A stretch of 64,000 nt of DNA from Limibaculum sp. (lineage in GTDB: Bacteria > Pseudomonadota > Alphaproteobacteria > Rhodobacterales > Rhodobacteraceae), in contig JBDIVM010000006.1 in NCBI GenBank assembly GCA_039805905.1, positions 120,827 through 184,826 on the forward strand, in the 5' to 3' direction. Shown piece after piece: positions 8,581 to 16,249 of this stretch (its first letter is position 1; every line of letters begins with the position of its first letter). Position numbers and translations under genes: made by a program. Below the pieces are notes generated by a model. It did no database searches. It was not told where the DNA came from and saw only the letters and a list, made by a program, of their open reading frames with translations.

Positions 8581-10029
8581 ATGACCCTTCTCGAAGTCAT
8601 TGCCCGTACCGGGCGGGTTTCCGCGTATCGTGCGAGTCGGCTGGGCCGTTTTGCCTCGGACGAGACCGGTGGAATCACGATCTTCGTCCTGATCCTGATG
8701 ATCCTTCTGCTTGTCGCCGGCGGCATGGCGGTGGACTACCAGCGCTACGAGCTGGCGCGTGCCGACCTGCAGGACGCGCTCGACCGTGGCGTTCTCGCGG
8801 CGACCAACACGAACCAGAGCTATGATCCGAACGGGCCGCTGACGCTGGACGAGCAGGCCGTGGCGCTGATCGCCGACTACATGGCCGTGCGCAACTTCAC
8901 GCCCGGTGGCTTCCAGATCAATGCGGCGATGACCGAGACAGGCGGCGGACGCTCGATCGTCGCCTCGGCGACCGAGCCGATGGAGACGATCTTCCTCCGC
9001 CTCATGGGCATCACGACCATGGACGTCACGGTGAACTCCGGGGCGATCCAGGCAATTCCCCGGCTCGAGATCACCCTGGTGCTCGACGTGTCCGGCTCGA
9101 TGGGCTGGAACTCGACGTCGTCGCCCGGCACCAAGATCGCCCAGCTCAAGGTCGCCGCCAAGGACTTCCTCGACACCGTCCTGTCGGCGGACAACGGCGC
9201 CCAGACGCTGATCTCGATCGTGCCCTTCTCCGAGCAGGTGGCACTGCCGCGCGAGATGGCGGATGTCTACAATCTCGACCGGCACCACGACTTCTCGAGC
9301 TGCTTCGATTACCGCGATCTCGACTTCGACACCACGGGCATGCCGGTCAATCCAGGCACGGCCTACCGCCAGGGCCAGCACTTCATCGAGAGCGGCAGCG
9401 GCGCGTCGCGGCGCTACGGCTGCCCACTGATCCGGAACGCGATCACGCCGTTCTCGAACGACGCCACGGCCCTGAAGGCGGCGATCGATGCCCTGGGGAC
9501 CGAATCCTGGACCGCGACCTATATGGGGATGAAGTGGGGCACGGCGCTGCTCGACCCCTCGTCGCGCCCGGTCGTCGACGCAATGATCGCGGCGGGCGAT
9601 CTCGCCCCGGAATTCGCCGGCTGGCCGAACGACTGGACCGACCCGAGCGTGCGGAAGATCACCGTGGTCATGTCGGACGGCCAGAACACCAAGCTGAACA
9701 TGATCCACGACAGCGATTATGCCCAGCACACTCCGTCGTACTGGGACACCAATGCGCCGAAGAGCGGCGAGAAGTTCGCGCTGATCGACAACGGGATGAC
9801 CGGCGCCGGCGATGTGGTGCTGAAGCAGATCTGCGACCAGAGCAAGCTCGGCTTCAACTCGACCGTCTACACCATCGGATTCGAGCTTGCGGGCCAGCCT
9901 CTCGCCGAAGCGGCGCTGGGTGACTGCGCCTCGTCGCCCTCGACCTTCTACCTGGTCAATGGTGTCGAGATTTCCACCGCCTTTGCGAACATCGCCGACG
10001 AGATCGTGAACCTCAAGCTCACGAACTGA
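8581..10029 (+). CDS. tadG: TadG-like pilus-associated protein with vWA domain
   Basis: N-terminal pilin-like TM (GGITIFVLIL...DYQRYELARADLQDALD), MIDAS LVLDVSGSM, VMSDG. Confidence 0.75.
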   Translation: MTLLEVIARTGRVSAYRASRLGRFASDETGGITIFVLILMILLLVAGGMAVDYQRYELARADLQDALDRGVLAATNTNQSYDPNGPLTLDEQAVALIADYMAVRNFTPGGFQINAAMTETGGGRSIVASATEPMETIFLRLMGITTMDVTVNSGAIQAIPRLEITLVLDVSGSMGWNSTSSPGTKIAQLKVAAKDFLDTVLSADNGAQTLISIVPFSEQVALPREMADVYNLDRHHDFSSCFDYRDLDFDTTGMPVNPGTAYRQGQHFIESGSGASRRYGCPLIRNAITPFSNDATALKAAIDALGTESWTATYMGMKWGTALLDPSSRPVVDAMIAAGDLAPEFAGWPNDWTDPSVRKITVVMSDGQNTKLNMIHDSDYAQHTPSYWDTNAPKSGEKFALIDNGMTGAGDVVLKQICDQSKLGFNSTVYTIGFELAGQPLAEAALGDCASSPSTFYLVNGVEISTAFANIADEIVNLKLTN

Positions 10030-10068
10030 GCCGCGGCGGCTGCAACCTGTTTGGGTGAGACAACCAAG

Positions 10069-10590
10069 ATGCTGAGAAACCTCCGGAGCTTCCTCGCCGA
10101 TCAGGCTGGCAACGCGACCATGGAGTTCGTGATCGTGTTCCCGGTGCTGATGTGGTTTGTGCTGACGATCTTCGAGACCGGCTTCATTGCGACGCGCGTC
10201 GTGCTGCTGGAGCGCGGGCTCGACATTGCCGCGCGCGACCTGCGTCTCGGCATCGACCCGACCATGGACCACGACAAGCTGAAGACGCTCGTCTGCGACA
10301 ACTCGGCGATCCTGGTCAACTGCGAGCGCGACCTCATCCTCGAGGTGGTCGAGCTCGACATCGACAGCGCCTACCCGCAGAACCAGGCCAACTGCATCGA
10401 CCGGACCGGGGAGATCGAGCCCACGCTCACCTTCAATCCCGGCGGTCGAAACCGGATCATGTTCGTGCGCGCCTGCATGATCGTCGACCCGATCTTTCCC
10501 GGCCTCGGCATCACGCTCGGCCTGCAGAAGGACAGTTCCGGCGGTCTCCAGATGGTCGCCTACACCGCCTTCATGAATGAGCCTGCGTGA
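10069..10590 (+). CDS. tadE: TadE-like pseudopilin
   Basis: AGNATMEFVIVFP prepilin motif; AYTAFMNEP C-terminus. Confidence 0.8.
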   Translation: MLRNLRSFLADQAGNATMEFVIVFPVLMWFVLTIFETGFIATRVVLLERGLDIAARDLRLGIDPTMDHDKLKTLVCDNSAILVNCERDLILEVVELDIDSAYPQNQANCIDRTGEIEPTLTFNPGGRNRIMFVRACMIVDPIFPGLGITLGLQKDSSGGLQMVAYTAFMNEPA

Positions 10591-10604
10591 CGAGGAGCCT
10601 GATC

Positions 10605-11195
10605 ATGCTACAGAGCCCGTTCACCCGTCTCTCCGGTGCATTCGCCCGGGACGAGCGCGGCAGCATCTCGATCGAGTTCATGATCGTGATGCCGCTCCTG
10701 CTGTTCCTCACCACCGGAGGTATCGCCTTCTGGGACGCGTTCCACTCGAACAGCCAGACGGCCAAGATCGCCTATGCGGTCAGCGACATCATGAGCCGGC
10801 ACGACGCCGTCGACGATACCGACATGGCCTATCTCTATGCCGTGCAGGACAAGATGATGGCCGCGGATCTTGACCGGCGGTCGCTGCGAATCTCGAGCAT
10901 CTGCTTCGAGGACGGCCAGCATCGTGTGCTCTGGTCCTACAGCAACAGCAGCGCGGACACGATCCCGCCGGCGGCGCTCGAGGACGAGGACATTCCGGTC
11001 GAGGCCCTGCCGGAGATGGCACCGCAGGATTCGGTCATCCTGACCGAAGTCGAGGCCCGCTGGCAGCCCTACTTCCTGAATGTCGGCCTTGGCGAAAGGG
11101 TCTGGCGATCGGTGCTGGTCAGCCGCCCCCGCTTCGTCAAGATCATCCCGCATACGGGGCTGAATCCCTCGAACATCTGCCCGGACGAAAGCTAG
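10605..11195 (+). CDS. TadE/TadF-like pseudopilin
   Basis: RGSISIEFMIVMP prepilin motif; RBS GAGGAG at 10592-10597. Confidence 0.75.
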   Translation: MLQSPFTRLSGAFARDERGSISIEFMIVMPLLLFLTTGGIAFWDAFHSNSQTAKIAYAVSDIMSRHDAVDDTDMAYLYAVQDKMMAADLDRRSLRISSICFEDGQHRVLWSYSNSSADTIPPAALEDEDIPVEALPEMAPQDSVILTEVEARWQPYFLNVGLGERVWRSVLVSRPRFVKIIPHTGLNPSNICPDES

Positions 11196-11232
11196 GGCCG
11201 GCGGCAGCCGGGCCGTCCCGCAACCCTCCGGG

Positions 11233-11871
11233 TCAGCCCGGAAACCTGACCCGGAGGTCCGCGACCTGTGCCTGGGTCAGGAACCGGGTGCGCTCGCCGC
11301 GGAGCATCAGATAGAGCCGCGCCGTCTCCTCCAGCTCCTCGGCGGCGTAGACCGCGCTCTCCAGCGACCTTCCTGCGACCACCGGCCCGTGATTGGCCAG
11401 CAGCATCGCGTGGTGATGCCGCGCCTTCTCGCGCACCGCCTCGGCCAGCGCCCGGTCGCCCGGCGGGAAATAGGGCACCAGCGGCAGCTTGCCGACACGC
11501 ATGACGTGGTAGGCCGTGACCGGCGGCAGCACGTCCTCGGGGTCCAGGTCGGCGAGGCACGACACTGCGACCGAATGGGTGGAATGCAGATGGACCACCG
11601 CCGTCATCTCCGGCCGCTCCTGATACATCGCGAGGTGCAGGAACGCCTCCTTCGACGGCGCGTCCCCCGAGCGGTGCGACCCGTCCCGCCCCACCAGCGC
11701 GAGCCGCGACGGGTCGAGCCGGCCCATGCAGGAATTGGTCGGCGAGACAATCATGCCGGCCTCGGTCAGCACCGAGATGTTGCCCGACGCGCCGCAGCCA
11801 TAGCCCCGGTCGAAGAGCGACTTCGCCAGGATGCAGATCTCCTCGCGGAGCTTCGCCTCGGCAGCGTTCAT
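11233..11871 (-). CDS. otnC: 3-oxo-tetronate 4-phosphate decarboxylase (class II aldolase family)
   Basis: GASGNISV, SKEAFLH, VVHLHSTH, LLANHGPVV; coupled to otnK. Confidence 0.8.
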   Translation of the reverse strand: MNAAEAKLREEICILAKSLFDRGYGCGASGNISVLTEAGMIVSPTNSCMGRLDPSRLALVGRDGSHRSGDAPSKEAFLHLAMYQERPEMTAVVHLHSTHSVAVSCLADLDPEDVLPPVTAYHVMRVGKLPLVPYFPPGDRALAEAVREKARHHHAMLLANHGPVVAGRSLESAVYAAEELEETARLYLMLRGERTRFLTQAQVADLRVRFPG

Positions 11872-13154
11872 GGCGCCGTCCTCACCGCATCGGCGAAGAA
11901 GGTCTCGGCGCCGAAGTTGCCCGACTTCAGCGCCAGCGCCACCGGCTCGGGCCCCAATGTCGCGCACCACGGCACGCCCGGCGCGATCGAGGGGCCGACC
12001 GCCAGCCGCCCGGCCCCCAGCGCCTGCGCCACCGCCCCCGAGGTCTCGCCCCCGGCGACGACGAAACGGCGCACGCCGCGCCCGCGCGCGCCCCGCGCGA
12101 TCCCGGCCAGCGTCTCCTCGACCAGCGTTGCGGCGCGCGCACGCCCCAGCCGCTCCTGCGCCGCGCGCACGCGCTCGGGCGGCTGCGTGGCGGCGACCAG
12201 CGCCGGGGCGCCGGCCCGCGCAGCCCACCACTCAAGGGCGGACTCGGCGCTCTGGCTGCCCTCGGCCAACCGCAGCGGATCGAGCCGCAGCACCGCGCGC
12301 CCGTCCGCCTCCCAGCGCGCCACCTGAGCGTTGGTTGCGGCCGAGCACGAGCCCGAGAGCAGCAGCACCGGCCCGCCGACCGCCGGCAGCGCGTCCGCCG
12401 CCCCCCCGGCCAGCAGCCCTCCGGCGGCAAAGTTCTCCGGCAGCGCCAGCCCCAGCCCGGATGCCGCCGTCACCAGCGCCATCCCGGCACAGGCGCGGCC
12501 CAGCGCCGCCAGATGCGCGTCCGTCAGCGCGTCGACCACCACATGCGCTACTCCTCCGGCGGCCAGCGCCTCGAGCCGCGCCCGGATCGCCTCGGCCCCC
12601 TGCTCGACGGTCGTGAAGGAAGCCAGCCCCACCTGTGCGCCGACCGAAAGCTGTGCCGCCAGAACCCGGCGCAGGTCGGCATCGGTCATCGGCGTCAGCG
12701 GGTGATTGCGCATCCCCGACTCGGACAGGAGCTCGTCAAAGACGAACAGCTTGCCCTGGTAGACGGTGCGCCCGTTCTCCGGGAAGGCCGGGCAGTACAC
12801 CGTCTGCCGGGCACCGGTCTCGGCCATGAGCGCCTCGGCCACCGGGCCGATATTGCCGGCGGGCGTCGAATCGAAGGTCGAGCAGTACTTGAAGTAGCAC
12901 TGCCGCGCGCCCGCCGCCGCCGCCCAGCGCCAGGCGGCGAGGCTCTCAGCCACCGCCTCGGCCACCGGCGCGGTGCGCGACTTCAGCGCCACCACCACAG
13001 CCTCGGCCTCGGGCACCGCCTCTCCCGGCGCCGGGGCACCCAGCTTCAGCACCGTCCGCATCCCGCCGCGGGTCAGCATCGAGGCGAGGTCCGTCGCCCC
13101 GGTGAAGTCGTCCGCGACCGCGCCCAGAAGCAGCTCTGTGCCGCGCCCCGTCAC
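11868..13154 (-). CDS. otnK: 3-oxo-tetronate kinase (DUF1537 four-carbon acid sugar kinase)
   Basis: GAVADDFTGATD, KYCSTFDST, LSGSCS, AGGETSG, LKSGNFG; GTG start at 13154 overlaps the upstream stop. Confidence 0.85.
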   Translation of the reverse strand: MTGRGTELLLGAVADDFTGATDLASMLTRGGMRTVLKLGAPAPGEAVPEAEAVVVALKSRTAPVAEAVAESLAAWRWAAAAGARQCYFKYCSTFDSTPAGNIGPVAEALMAETGARQTVYCPAFPENGRTVYQGKLFVFDELLSESGMRNHPLTPMTDADLRRVLAAQLSVGAQVGLASFTTVEQGAEAIRARLEALAAGGVAHVVVDALTDAHLAALGRACAGMALVTAASGLGLALPENFAAGGLLAGGAADALPAVGGPVLLLSGSCSAATNAQVARWEADGRAVLRLDPLRLAEGSQSAESALEWWAARAGAPALVAATQPPERVRAAQERLGRARAATLVEETLAGIARGARGRGVRRFVVAGGETSGAVAQALGAGRLAVGPSIAPGVPWCATLGPEPVALALKSGNFGAETFFADAVRTAP

Positions 13155-13918
13155 AGCGTTACCGTAAGGCCGCCATCGACATAGAGCACATGCCCGTTGA
13201 CGAAACCGGCAGCATCCGAGGCGAGGAAGACCGCCGCCCCCGCCAGCTCCTCGACCCGGCCCCAGCGCCCCTGCGGCGTGCGCTGCTCGAGCCAGGCGGT
13301 GAAGGCGGGGTCGTCGACCAGCGGCTGCGTCAGCTCGGTGGCGAAGTAGCCCGGCCCGATGCCGTTGACGTTCAGCCCGTATTTCGCCCAGTCGGCACAC
13401 ATCGCCTTGGTGAGGTTGCCGATCGCGCCCTTGGCGGTGGCATAGGGAGCGATGCCGGGGCGGACGAGCCGGGTGGTTGCCGAGCAGATGTTGATGATCC
13501 TGCCGCGGCGGCGCGGGATCATCCGCCGTGCCACCGCCTGGCCGACCATGTAGGGGGCATGGAGCTGCACCGCCATCAGCGCGTGCCAGTCCGCATCGGC
13601 CAGCTCCTCGAGCGGCGCGCGGATCTGGACGCCGGCATTGTTGACCAGGATGTCGATCGGCCCGAACTCGGCCTCGATCCGGGCGATGCCGGCATCGACC
13701 CCGGCGCGCTCGGTGACATCGAAGGGCGCCTCGAACACCTTGGCGCCGTCCTCCCTCAGCGCGGCGGCGGCCGCGGCGAGGGTCTCGGGGCTCCGCCCGT
13801 TGATCGCCACCCCGGCGCCGGCCCCGGCCAGCCCGCGGGCGATGGCGAACCCGATCCCCCGGCTGGCCCCGGTGATCAGGGCGCGGCGCCCGGTCAGGTC
13901 GAACATGCCTGCGGTCAT
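13151..13918 (-). CDS. Gluconate 5-dehydrogenase-like SDR
   Basis: TGASRGIG, NNAGVQIRAPL, YATAKG, GPGYFATELT, GHVLYVDGG. Confidence 0.85.
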   Translation of the reverse strand: MTAGMFDLTGRRALITGASRGIGFAIARGLAGAGAGVAINGRSPETLAAAAAALREDGAKVFEAPFDVTERAGVDAGIARIEAEFGPIDILVNNAGVQIRAPLEELADADWHALMAVQLHAPYMVGQAVARRMIPRRRGRIINICSATTRLVRPGIAPYATAKGAIGNLTKAMCADWAKYGLNVNGIGPGYFATELTQPLVDDPAFTAWLEQRTPQGRWGRVEELAGAAVFLASDAAGFVNGHVLYVDGGLTVTL

Positions 13919-13974
13919 CGGCGGGATCCTCTTCGCTTCAGCGGGCGTCCCGCGATGGCCGGGCGGTCGGCGGG

Positions 13975-14478
13975 TCAGGCGGTTCCCCGATAGGGCTCGA
14001 CATACTGCAGCGCCATGTCCCAGGGGAAGAAGATCCAGGTATCCTGGCTCACCTCGGTGATGTAGGTCTGCACCAGCGGCTTGCCCTTGGGCTTGGCGTA
14101 GACCGTCGCGAAATGCGCCTTCGGATAGAGCTTGCGCACCACCTCCAGCGTCTTGCCGGTGTCGACCAGGTCGTCGACGATCAGTACCCCCTCGCCGTCG
14201 CCGATCGAGGGATCGGGCGCCTTGATCACCCGCGCCTCGGCCCGGTTCTGGTGGTCGTAGGATTTCACGCCGATGGTGTCGACATAGCGGATATTGAGCT
14301 CACGGGCCACGATGCAGGCCGGCACCATGCCGCCCCGCGTGATCGCCACCAGCGAGCGCCAGGTGCCGTCCTTGCCCGGCCCCTGCTTGTCCAGCCGCCA
14401 CGCCAGAGCCCGGCTGTCGCGGTGGATCTGCTCCCACGAGACGTGGAAGCCCTTCTCATGGGGAAGCCTGTCATTCAT
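13975..14478 (-). CDS. gpt: Xanthine phosphoribosyltransferase
   Basis: [40 protein letters not shown]. Confidence 0.92.
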
Positions 14479-14633
14479 GCCCGTCCCTCCCGCGCTGGCA
14501 CGGCCCGGCGTCACGGCGCCTGCCGATTTATAGGTGCCGCCGGGACCGGCGCAATCCCCTGCGCTGCGCCGCGGCAGCACGGGCCAATCGCCTTGCACGT
14601 CTCCGCCCGATCGTTTAAACGGTGCCTCGCGTC

Positions 14634-14709
14634 GCCGCCTTAGCTCAGCCGGTAGAGCATCGCATTCGTAATGCGAGGGTCGCGTGTTCGAGTCACGCAG
14701 GCGGCACCA
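14634..14709 (+). tRNA. tRNA-Thr(CGT)
   Basis: GCCGCCT acceptor stem, D-arm AGCTCAGCCGGTAGAGC, anticodon arm TCGCA-TTCGTAA-TGCGA, T-loop GTTCGAG, encoded CCA; 76 nt. Confidence 0.96.
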
Positions 14710-14857
14710 TGACGCCTTTCGGTCAGATGACGCTGCGTGGGCCGGTTGCGGACCTGCGTGCCTGGATCGAGAAATCAGATCGAAGCCGCAGGCAGCGCCG
14801 GGCCACTGCTCCGCCCGATTCGCGCCCCGGAACGCGCACCCGGCCAGGCAGGTTCCG

Positions 14858-16249
14858 TCAGGCCGCGCTTGGTGCAGCCGTGCGGTCCGCGCCAGTCTTC
14901 CCCGGCGCCTCTCCTGCCATCGCGGCGGTAAGCTCGATCTCGTCGGCCTCCTCGACACCGGCTTCCGGTGCGTCCTCGCCACCGATCAGGAGCGGCAGCA
15001 GCGCGACGTGACGCATGTCGGCGCCGCCGGACTCGCCGCCCTGCGCCTCAAGCGCCTTCGCCAGCCAGCCGCGCACCTCGGCCTCGGGCGCCCCCTCGCC
15101 GCGGGCGATCGCGGCGCGGATAGTGCAGCTCCGGGCGGACGGCTCATCCTCCTTCATGTCGCTGATCGCCTTGCGGGCGCCCGCCCAGTCCCGGGTCATC
15201 AGGGCGAGTTCCGCCGCCAGCATCCTGGTTTCCGGATGCGACGGGAACGCCGCAAGCAGCTTGCCGAATCGCAGGCGGCGCTCGTGGGCGCTCTCCTCCG
15301 GCTCGATCGCCGCATAGGCGGCCGCCAGGATCGGGCTCGGCTTCCGGCGCCAGGCGTCGATGATCTGCTTCGCCGCCGCGCGCTTCGACCCGGCCTTGAC
15401 CAAATGACGGGCCGCTGCGGCCACCGCATCGGCATTCTCCGGGTCGAGCTTTGCTGCGTCCAGCGCCAGCTTGCGCGCGTGGTCGGGCTCGCTGGCCTCC
15501 TCGGCGTCCTCGGCCTGAGCCAGCGCCAGCATGGCATCGCGGCGGTTCGCCTCGGGTTTCGGCAGGAATCCGGCCCGGCGCTGCGAGTCCAGGGTCTTGC
15601 GGGCACCGGCCCAGTCGAATTTGCGGCTCTGCAGCGCATAGAGCGTGTCGAGCACCGATGAATCCTTGGGCCGCAGCGTGGCCGCCGTCTCGGCAAGCTT
15701 CAGCGCCCGGTCGTCATCCTTGCGTTCGAGCGCCCGGTTCAGCAGCCCGCGTACGCCGATGAAGGCGGTCTCCGGGTCCTCGGCCAGCGCCCGGTAATAG
15801 GTATCGGCCCGCAGGCCGTCACCCACCAGTTCCGCCGCCTGGGCGTTCAGGAGCCGGGTCAGCTCCGGCCGCCGCAGCAGGCGCTCGGCCCGCTCGGCGC
15901 TGTGGCGCGCCGCCTTGCCGTCGCCTGCCGCCACGGCGGCAAGGCCGCGCGCCATCGCCTCGAGCCCCCGCCGCTCGCGCGAGCGATCGAAGTAGCGACT
16001 GATCGCGGTCTCGTCCCCGGCAATGAAGCGCAGCACCGCCAGCAGCACGCCGGCGACCTTCAGCGCGATCCACAGCGCGACGAAGCCCGCGAGCGCCAGC
16101 GCGGCACCGGCAATCGGGCTGAAGTAGTACTCGTGCCCCGCCAGGTTCACGGTGATGCCGCCCCTGGCCTCGATCAGCTGGTGGATGCCCCAGATCCCGG
16201 CCGAGACCAGGACCAGGAAGAGTGCGATTCGGATTGCGGAGATCAGCAT
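14858..16249 (-). CDS. hemY: HemY N-terminal domain/TPR membrane protein
   Basis: Two N-terminal TM segments, [16 protein letters not shown]-like helices; conserved position next to mitofilin. Confidence 0.85.

Follow-up and report, generated by a model that had tools for sequence, protein, structure and literature searches.

A gluconate 5-dehydrogenase-family SDR coupled to otnK-otnC in Limibaculum as a candidate front-end enzyme of tetronate catabolism

Which reaction is contributed by a short-chain dehydrogenase/reductase (SDR) related to gluconate 5-dehydrogenase (Ga5DH) when its gene overlaps that of a 3-oxo-tetronate kinase? The question is raised by a locus of Limibaculum sp. located within the 64,000-nucleotide stretch of DNA analysed here, hereafter the window (G000:C6:120827-184826, contig JBDIVM010000006.1, where G000 denotes the source genome and C-numbers its contigs). 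Three consecutive, co-directional genes on the minus strand, together occupying window positions 11233-13918, form the cassette in question:

13151-13918, minus strand: SDR of the Ga5DH/IdnO family, 255 aa, with S146, Y159 and K163 as catalytic residues; member of an otnK-linked subclade termed clade A
11868-13154, minus strand: otnK, 3-oxo-tetronate kinase (DUF1537; NF043035), 428 aa, GTG start; member of the 'type II' OtnK clade
11233-11871, minus strand: otnC (NF043034), 212 aa, ATG start

The overlapping stop and start codons reported in the initial annotation are confirmed at both junctions: the TGA stop of the SDR gene (13153-13151) overlaps the GTG start of otnK (13154-13152) in a GTGA at 13151-13154, and the otnK stop overlaps the otnC ATG in an ATGA at 11871-11868. 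The kinase scores 562 bits against the NCBIfam NF043035 cut-off of 350 and contains both the PF07005 and the PF17042 domain, and OtnC, of class II aldolase fold (PF00596), scores 315 bits against the NF043034 cut-off of 250. Neither an isomerase nor a 2-dehydrogenase gene adjoins the cassette, the immediate neighbours being gpt upstream and TadE-like genes downstream. The canonical tetronate pathway, reportedly set out by Zhang et al. in PNAS in 2016, runs in four steps via LtnD/DenD, OtnI, OtnK and OtnC.

Based on the comparisons described below, we propose, with a probability of roughly 45%, that the SDR is the front-end 3-dehydrogenase of an OtnI-independent type II OtnK-OtnC module, non-orthologous to Ltn3D, an SDR that oxidises L-threonate at C3 (Watanabe et al., J Biol Chem, Feb 2026, PMC12994016). 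Oxidation by enzymes of the Ga5DH family takes place at the carbon adjacent to the terminal CH2OH, which in a tetronate is C3, so that oxidation there would yield a beta-keto acid for OtnK and OtnC. In the proposed mechanism, the SDR would use NADP+ to oxidise a four-carbon sugar acid at its penultimate carbon, C3, giving 3-oxo-tetronate, OtnK would phosphorylate this compound at C4, and OtnC would decarboxylate the OtnK product to dihydroxyacetone phosphate (DHAP) and CO2. Substrate, oxidation site and cofactor of the SDR are what we infer here, on the grounds of family membership, motifs and neighbouring genes. The enzyme would represent an independent recruitment from the Ga5DH family, working like Ltn3D, and its route would run in parallel to, and not replace, the classical route through DenD or an LtnD-like enzyme and OtnI.

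The OtnK lineage provides the strongest comparative support for the SDR as a candidate front-end enzyme. We compared 180 distinct otnK loci, of which 80 came from reference genomes and 40 from the genus, the remainder being one per genus of the family, with neighbours at loci of lower GC content identified by tblastn and targeted Pfam scans. The window OtnK lies within a clade of 25 loci (support 0.998), here called type II. At none of these is otnI adjacent (within 6 kb), as opposed to 93 of the 154 other loci, and denD is likewise adjacent at none of the 25. Next to type II otnK stands a Gfo/Idh/MocA oxidoreductase, usually together with a dehydrogenase of the isocitrate/isopropylmalate-dehydrogenase family (Iso_dh), or a DHRS6-like SDR, or an LtnD-like gene, or, in the subclade that holds the window locus, a Ga5DH-like SDR. 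It is this pattern, a constant OtnK-OtnC back-end combined with swapped oxidoreductases, that suggests a role for the SDR directly upstream of the kinase.

Two of these partners were also considered as counterparts of characterised one-step enzymes. The DHRS6-like SDR, encoded divergently beside the closest OtnK relatives (L174), was ruled out as Ltn3D, with PDB 8XWK/8Y11 and human DHRS6 (2AG5) as its best structural matches. The Gfo/Idh/MocA gene upstream of sister otnK genes was dropped as ApnO, for which the ApnO paper gives a KARI-like fold. Separately, we observe that an Iso_dh gene recurs near type II otnK-otnC (window 7132-8232, L128-L131, L134, L171, L173, L180, L198 and L207). At L128-L131 and L134, from other Rhodobacteraceae genera, it heads operons of the form Iso_dh-otnK-otnC, and neither otnI nor ltnD or denD lies within 6 kb, whereas at L171, L173 and L180 it is located 1-4 kb from otnK-otnC; no description of Iso_dh beside type II otnK-otnC was found in the papers searched.

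The association between SDR and kinase extends beyond the window. A search of 5.8 billion proteins returned SDR relatives at 69-92% identity that form a group, after which the score drops, and in the resulting tree this clade A (45 sequences) is monophyletic with a support of 0.999 and a stem of 0.215 substitutions per site. All members with readable context are found either as SDR-otnK-otnC or, on the metagenome contig L240, as gpt-SDR-dehydratase-DenD. The trio SDR-otnK-otnC, with gaps of at most 12 nt, recurs in five distinct contexts on independent contigs with differing downstream flanks, which argues for more than chance. The full order gpt-SDR-otnK-otnC is present at L025 (G000), L120, L121 and L122, and L239 is a short contig with SDR-otnK-otnC of which the upstream DNA is missing. 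Overall, five of the six distinct clade-A contexts read have gpt ahead of the SDR; in the sixth (G014/L123), SDR-otnK-otnC follows an unassigned open reading frame (ORF) that is cut off.

Relatives outside clade A, at 56-65% identity, occupy other contexts. Those at 65% identity are accompanied by a 2-hydroxyacid dehydrogenase, and in the Ralstonia case by a gluconokinase as well, one outside relative is located within a TRAP/Gfo locus, and others stand beside canonical otn clusters in other genera (L142, L176). No gluconate, idonate or ketogluconate gene is found next to the window SDR, which is surrounded by gpt, otnK, otnC and Tad genes. As a side observation, a Ga5DH-like SDR 65% identical to that of the window lies between dnaN and recF on a metagenomic contig (L127:7001-7768), an odd site for a sugar-acid enzyme.

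How far does the protein itself depart from gluconate 5-dehydrogenases? Its best NCBIfam matches are PRK07523 (373 bits, cut-off 413) and the gluconate 5-dehydrogenase PRK08085 (308 bits, cut-off 408), and it falls below the gluconate 5-dehydrogenase equivalog cut-offs of both NF005983 (308 versus 408 bits) and NF005488 (275 versus 369 bits). Judged by these scores, the SDR is assignable to the Ga5DH family level only. It is the sole member of that family in the genome, the next best SDR being 39.5% identical. The closest solved relative is PDB 5U9P from Burkholderia, annotated as a gluconate 5-dehydrogenase, at about 63% identity, and identity to E. coli IdnO is 48%. The Ltn3D structure 9X6I is not among its PDB matches at E 1e-30 or better, and it shares 36% identity over 189 aa with the Ltn3D ortholog of its own genome.

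The loop right after the catalytic Ser146 is altered in clade A relative to the family and IdnO (V147A, Q148M/T, S149T and E150R/A), converting the family loop S-V/M-Q-S-E-L (S-x-Q-S-E-L-G/A-R) to S-A-(M/T)-T-(R/A)-L. Further clade A changes are K167G, M168N and A216Q. Clade B and IdnO keep V/M, Q, S and E at positions 147-150, and S146, Y159, K163 and R100 are invariant in clades A and B. The arginine R153, kept in clade A, aligns with Arg143 of Ltn3D from Paracoccus litorisediminis (PlLtn3D), an essential residue that binds the carboxylate of the substrate at a distance of two carbons from the site of oxidation (PMC12994016). This equivalent of Arg143 is the only element of the Ltn3D signature Arg33-Arg34/Ser138/Arg143/Asn181 found in the window SDR. 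The cofactor motif NGR (R42) is of NADP type. R100 is the equivalent of Arg104 of Streptococcus suis Ga5DH, which a study in Protein Science in 2009 is said to have described as an extra substrate-orienting arginine.

Is a one-step entry into the pathway required in this organism? The genome searched is 100% complete, in 18 contigs, and the cassette copies are its sole OtnK and sole OtnC above the family cut-offs. An OtnI (383 bits, cut-off 325) is encoded on contig C12, and DenD (399 bits, cut-off 325) is encoded at C6:118749-119699, on the same strand as the cassette and 12.4 kb past otnC. An LtnD-like beta-hydroxyacid dehydrogenase scoring 327 bits, just below the cut-off of 350, lies 19 kb away at C6:112282-113145 and adjoins a sugar ABC transporter and a TRAP transporter; a 2-hydroxyacid dehydrogenase gene is present in the extended locus as well. 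The 2-dehydrogenase and OtnI of the canonical gene set are hence not beside otnK-otnC and are both encoded elsewhere in the genome, in the LtnD-like case below the cut-off. The classical D-erythronate route DenD-OtnI-OtnK-OtnC is probably intact but dispersed in G000. The initial annotation had described a cassette without otnI or ltnD/denD and had named the occurrence of these genes elsewhere, together with their co-regulation, as speaking against a bypass; the former description applies to the immediate locus and does not extend to the genome, in which OtnI, DenD and the LtnD-like gene are all found.

In addition, a motif scan followed by a PDB search identified an Ltn3D ortholog on contig C2 (L241:7798-8544, minus strand), which matches PDB 9X6I at E 3e-99 and keeps the GRR, S-x-S-x4-R-x5-Y-x3-K and DIGN signatures. 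Its neighbours are a gene for a peptidase C26 and one for a divergent IclR regulator, and the vicinity holds no sugar-acid genes. The second SDR of the window (822-1583) was ruled out as Ltn3D, since it is FabG-like, with a NAD-type Asp and no Arg at Ser+7.

The unlinked OtnI was followed through a survey of 61 species genomes of the genus. It scores above the cut-off in 18 of the 19 genomes with a type II kinase, the 19th scoring 312 bits, and it adjoins DenD in four sister species, which ties OtnI to tetronate catabolism. The same OtnI-like gene is paired with a Sulfotransfer_5-domain gene near nusG and rplA (L024:8587-10177 on C12 of G000, L229, L230, L232, L233 and L234). This OtnI-sulfotransferase pair is kept in the OtnK-less genomes G226 and G022 too, and G225 also has the OtnI-like gene; conservation of the pair without OtnK indicates that the presence of OtnI is not tied to the cassette. 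The distribution suggests a role of the OtnI-like gene beyond tetronate catabolism.

The surroundings of the cassette in the window comprise the following features:

13975-14478, minus strand: gpt, xanthine-guanine phosphoribosyltransferase, 56 nt upstream of the SDR gene
8542-11195, plus strand: three TadG/TadE-like pilus-assembly genes, convergent with the cassette, between otnC and the dehydratase-DenD pair
7132-8232, minus strand: gene of the isocitrate/isopropylmalate-dehydrogenase family (Iso_dh), tartrate-dehydrogenase-like, without an NCBIfam equivalog, 3.0 kb downstream of otnC
3411-5366, minus strand: RTX calcium-binding repeat protein, 651 aa, between otnC and the dehydratase-DenD pair
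822-1583, plus strand: second SDR, FabG-like and NAD-type, divergent from the dehydratase gene
1-724, minus strand: 5' part of a sugar-acid dehydratase of the IlvD/Edd family; DenD is the next gene downstream, just beyond the window

The two small ORFs at 5381-5974 and 6086-6754 and a larger one at 1534-3024 (496 aa) have no Pfam match. Upstream of gpt, hemC, hemD and a HemY-domain gene of haem biosynthesis are found. A sigma-70 promoter scan of 10500-15200 detected none, and the single terminator-like match in this region, inside gpt, was at or below the shuffled-control level.

On the minus strand of G000, the gene order is gpt, SDR, otnK, otnC, about 10.5 kb of other genes, dehydratase and DenD. 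In L240 (399-6806), the order is gpt-SDR-dehydratase-DenD-(TRAP), with the dehydratase-DenD pair directly after the SDR, i.e. the G000 order minus otnK-otnC and minus the stretch of about 10.5 kb, which in G000 comprises the Tad pilus genes, the Iso_dh-family gene, the RTX-repeat protein and the second SDR. Orthologs of the two loci are 89% (dehydratase), 77% (DenD), 84% (DctQM) and 87% (gpt) identical. Comparison of the two arrangements points to an insertion or deletion within an ancestral sugar-acid locus. In view of the orthology and the shared order, DenD is part of the same ancestral sugar-acid region rather than an unrelated distant gene.

Several observations weigh against a front-end role of the SDR in tetronate oxidation. 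The hallmark arginine of Ga5DH is retained in clade A, and position 150 is an Arg in just 23 of 42 clade members. With DenD, the LtnD-like gene, OtnI and an Ltn3D ortholog in the genome, the window SDR is dispensable for either known substrate, and the true Ltn3D ortholog on C2 already makes a one-step route available without it. At the cassette, neither a regulator nor a transporter nor a promoter was detected, and the gpt-SDR pairing is at least as conserved as SDR-otnK, with no otnK after the SDR in L240. Among the searchable genomes only G000 and G014 carry the cassette; as both keep OtnI and DenD, there is no evidence of the SDR replacing them. The initial annotation had suggested that the SDR could form 3-oxo-tetronate directly and bypass OtnI, and had named co-occurrence of its clade with otnK in otnI-less loci as a check. 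The link between SDR and OtnK/OtnC is upheld by the conserved SDR-otnK-otnC synteny, by the separate clade and by the type II lineage without adjacent otnI. A necessary bypass is not, as no otnI-less genome with the cassette, and thus no case that would demand one, was encountered among those searchable. A bypass, if any, would operate in parallel, as does that of Ltn3D in Paracoccus.

The most serious competing explanation, though an unlikely one, is that the SDR is an ordinary IdnO-type oxidoreductase of 5-keto-D-gluconate or other hexonates that funnels C6 keto-acids to D-gluconate, from where the Ltn3D ortholog oxidises C3 and OtnK/OtnC generate D-ribulose 5-phosphate, i.e. the 'C4/C5/C6 funnel' of Paracoccus. 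Family membership, the retained Arg104 equivalent and the NADP motif agree with such a function, as do the Ltn3D ortholog in the genome, the 2-hydroxyacid dehydrogenase of the extended locus and the Ga5DH-like SDRs beside canonical otn clusters in three other genera (L142, L163 and L176). Moreover, IdnO and 2-ketogluconate reductase are frequent in the clusters described in PMC12994016, where 3-oxo-D-gluconate is also reported to be processed by OtnK/OtnC in vitro. However, clade A has lost the family Gln at Ser+2 and Glu at Ser+4 and sits on a long stem branch, and the SDR scores under both gluconate 5-dehydrogenase equivalog cut-offs. Its gene also has no adjoining idnD, gluconokinase or gluconate transporter gene, unlike the homologs at 65% identity, and the Ltn3D ortholog that the funnel would need is unlinked, in an unrelated context.

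Less probable again is that the SDR produces a 2-oxo acid, or acts on another stereoisomer (D-threonate, L-erythronate) or a C5 acid, and depends on the unlinked OtnI, thereby widening the classical four-step route. The high-scoring OtnI in 18 of 19 type II genomes of the genus, and its position beside DenD in four sister species, would fit such a dependence, yet Ga5DH-family enzymes oxidise the carbon by the terminal CH2OH and not C2, the same OtnI-like gene is kept in the OtnK-less genomes G226 and G022, and otnI is adjacent at no type II locus. Lowest of all we rate an adjacency without pathway meaning, in which gpt-SDR is the conserved unit, otnK-otnC landed beside it in one lineage and the SDR has an unrelated housekeeping or reductive role. 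It would account for the one relative without otnK after the SDR and for the presence of gpt ahead of the SDR in five of six distinct contexts read, and since the whole clade stems from closely related Rhodobacterales, synteny may partly reflect shared ancestry. Against it, whichever pair follows the SDR, otnK-otnC or dehydratase-DenD, consists of tetronate or sugar-acid genes, the genes are closely spaced or even overlap, and the trio stays intact though the downstream flanks differ.

If the SDR is the front-end 3-dehydrogenase, which tetronate would it oxidise? D-erythronate is our tentative choice, doubtful as it remains, on stereochemical grounds: D-gluconate has at C4(R)-C5(R)-C6 the configuration that D-erythronate has at C2(R)-C3(R)-C4, and the Ltn3D ortholog already covers L-threonate (2R,3S), both of which make D-erythronate the more likely substrate. 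A '(hypothetical) D-erythronate 3-dehydrogenase' is mentioned in PMC12994016. It is conceivable, with similar reserve, that the SDR is such an enzyme, evolved independently, and that type II OtnK-OtnC is an OtnI-independent back-end served by interchangeable oxidoreductases (the SDR, the DHRS6-like SDR, Gfo/Idh/MocA and Iso_dh). As a concept, the bypass of OtnI by a C3-oxidising SDR dates from a 2026 publication on another SDR family (PMC12994016); clade A is a non-orthologous candidate, and no characterisation of this clade was found in the papers searched.

Tetronate catabolism was worked out only in 2016 and its one-step shortcuts were found only in 2026. Should the proposed function hold, the locus would represent a second, independent invention of the 3-oxo-tetronate shortcut, from a different enzyme family, the SDR clade might be the missing direct D-erythronate 3-dehydrogenase, and the routine annotation 'gluconate 5-dehydrogenase' would be corrected. 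The interchangeable oxidoreductases, if they do serve such a back-end, would be several undescribed entry routes into tetronate catabolism, and the separate OtnK-OtnC lineage with its swappable upstream enzymes offers concrete candidates to those looking for new enzymes. Should the SDR prove to be an ordinary ketogluconate reductase, nothing about the locus would be remarkable.

Compared to the canonical LtnD/DenD-OtnI-OtnK-OtnC pathway (E. coli ygbJKLM), the Limibaculum system has equivalog-level OtnK and OtnC, and its genome encodes DenD, an LtnD-like enzyme and OtnI. In contrast to the canonical arrangement, the G000 genes are scattered over three loci, the SDR takes the place of ltnD before otnK-otnC, no otnI follows, and the window OtnK comes from a separate clade in which otnI is never a neighbour. 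With Ga5DH/IdnO (E. coli IdnO; S. suis Ga5DH, PDB 3CXR/3O03; Burkholderia 5U9P), the window SDR shares fold and family, the Ser-Tyr-Lys residues, the Arg104 equivalent and the PGYF and RWG motifs. It differs in its scores below the equivalog cut-offs, in the altered post-Ser loop and K167G, M168N and A216Q, and in a context of otnK-otnC rather than idnD/idnK/idnT or 2-ketogluconate reductase and gluconokinase.

ApnO makes the OtnK substrate from D-erythronate, and OtnK/OtnC accept it (Watanabe et al., J Biol Chem Oct 2026, PMC13753588). The function proposed for the window SDR would be analogous, i.e. one enzyme that leads from D-erythronate to the OtnK substrate and bypasses DenD and OtnI. 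ApnO is, however, not an SDR and does not oxidise C3 directly; it has a KARI-like fold, a binuclear metal centre and oxidation-coupled isomerisation. A further parallel is Ltn3D (P. litorisediminis GL300_RS07945; PDB 9X6I/9XAX), which together with 3OtnK and 3OtnC yields DHAP from L-threonate with no need for OtnI, occurs alongside Ltn2D and OtnI, and also takes C5 and C6 acids of 2R,3S configuration (PMC12994016). The window SDR is not its ortholog and lacks the Arg-Arg 2'-phosphate motif, Ser+2 and the DIGN asparagine, and PlLtn3D is less than 30% similar to IdnO-type enzymes; furthermore, the window SDR is operonic with otnK-otnC, whereas PlLtn3D is located in a separate C4/C5/C6 cluster. 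Nevertheless, both are classical SDRs, for which C3 oxidation of a tetronate is known in one case and proposed by analogy in the other, both probably prefer NADP, the Arg seven residues past the catalytic Ser (RPGxxPY) aligns, and in both cases a classical 2-dehydrogenase and OtnI are encoded in the same genome.

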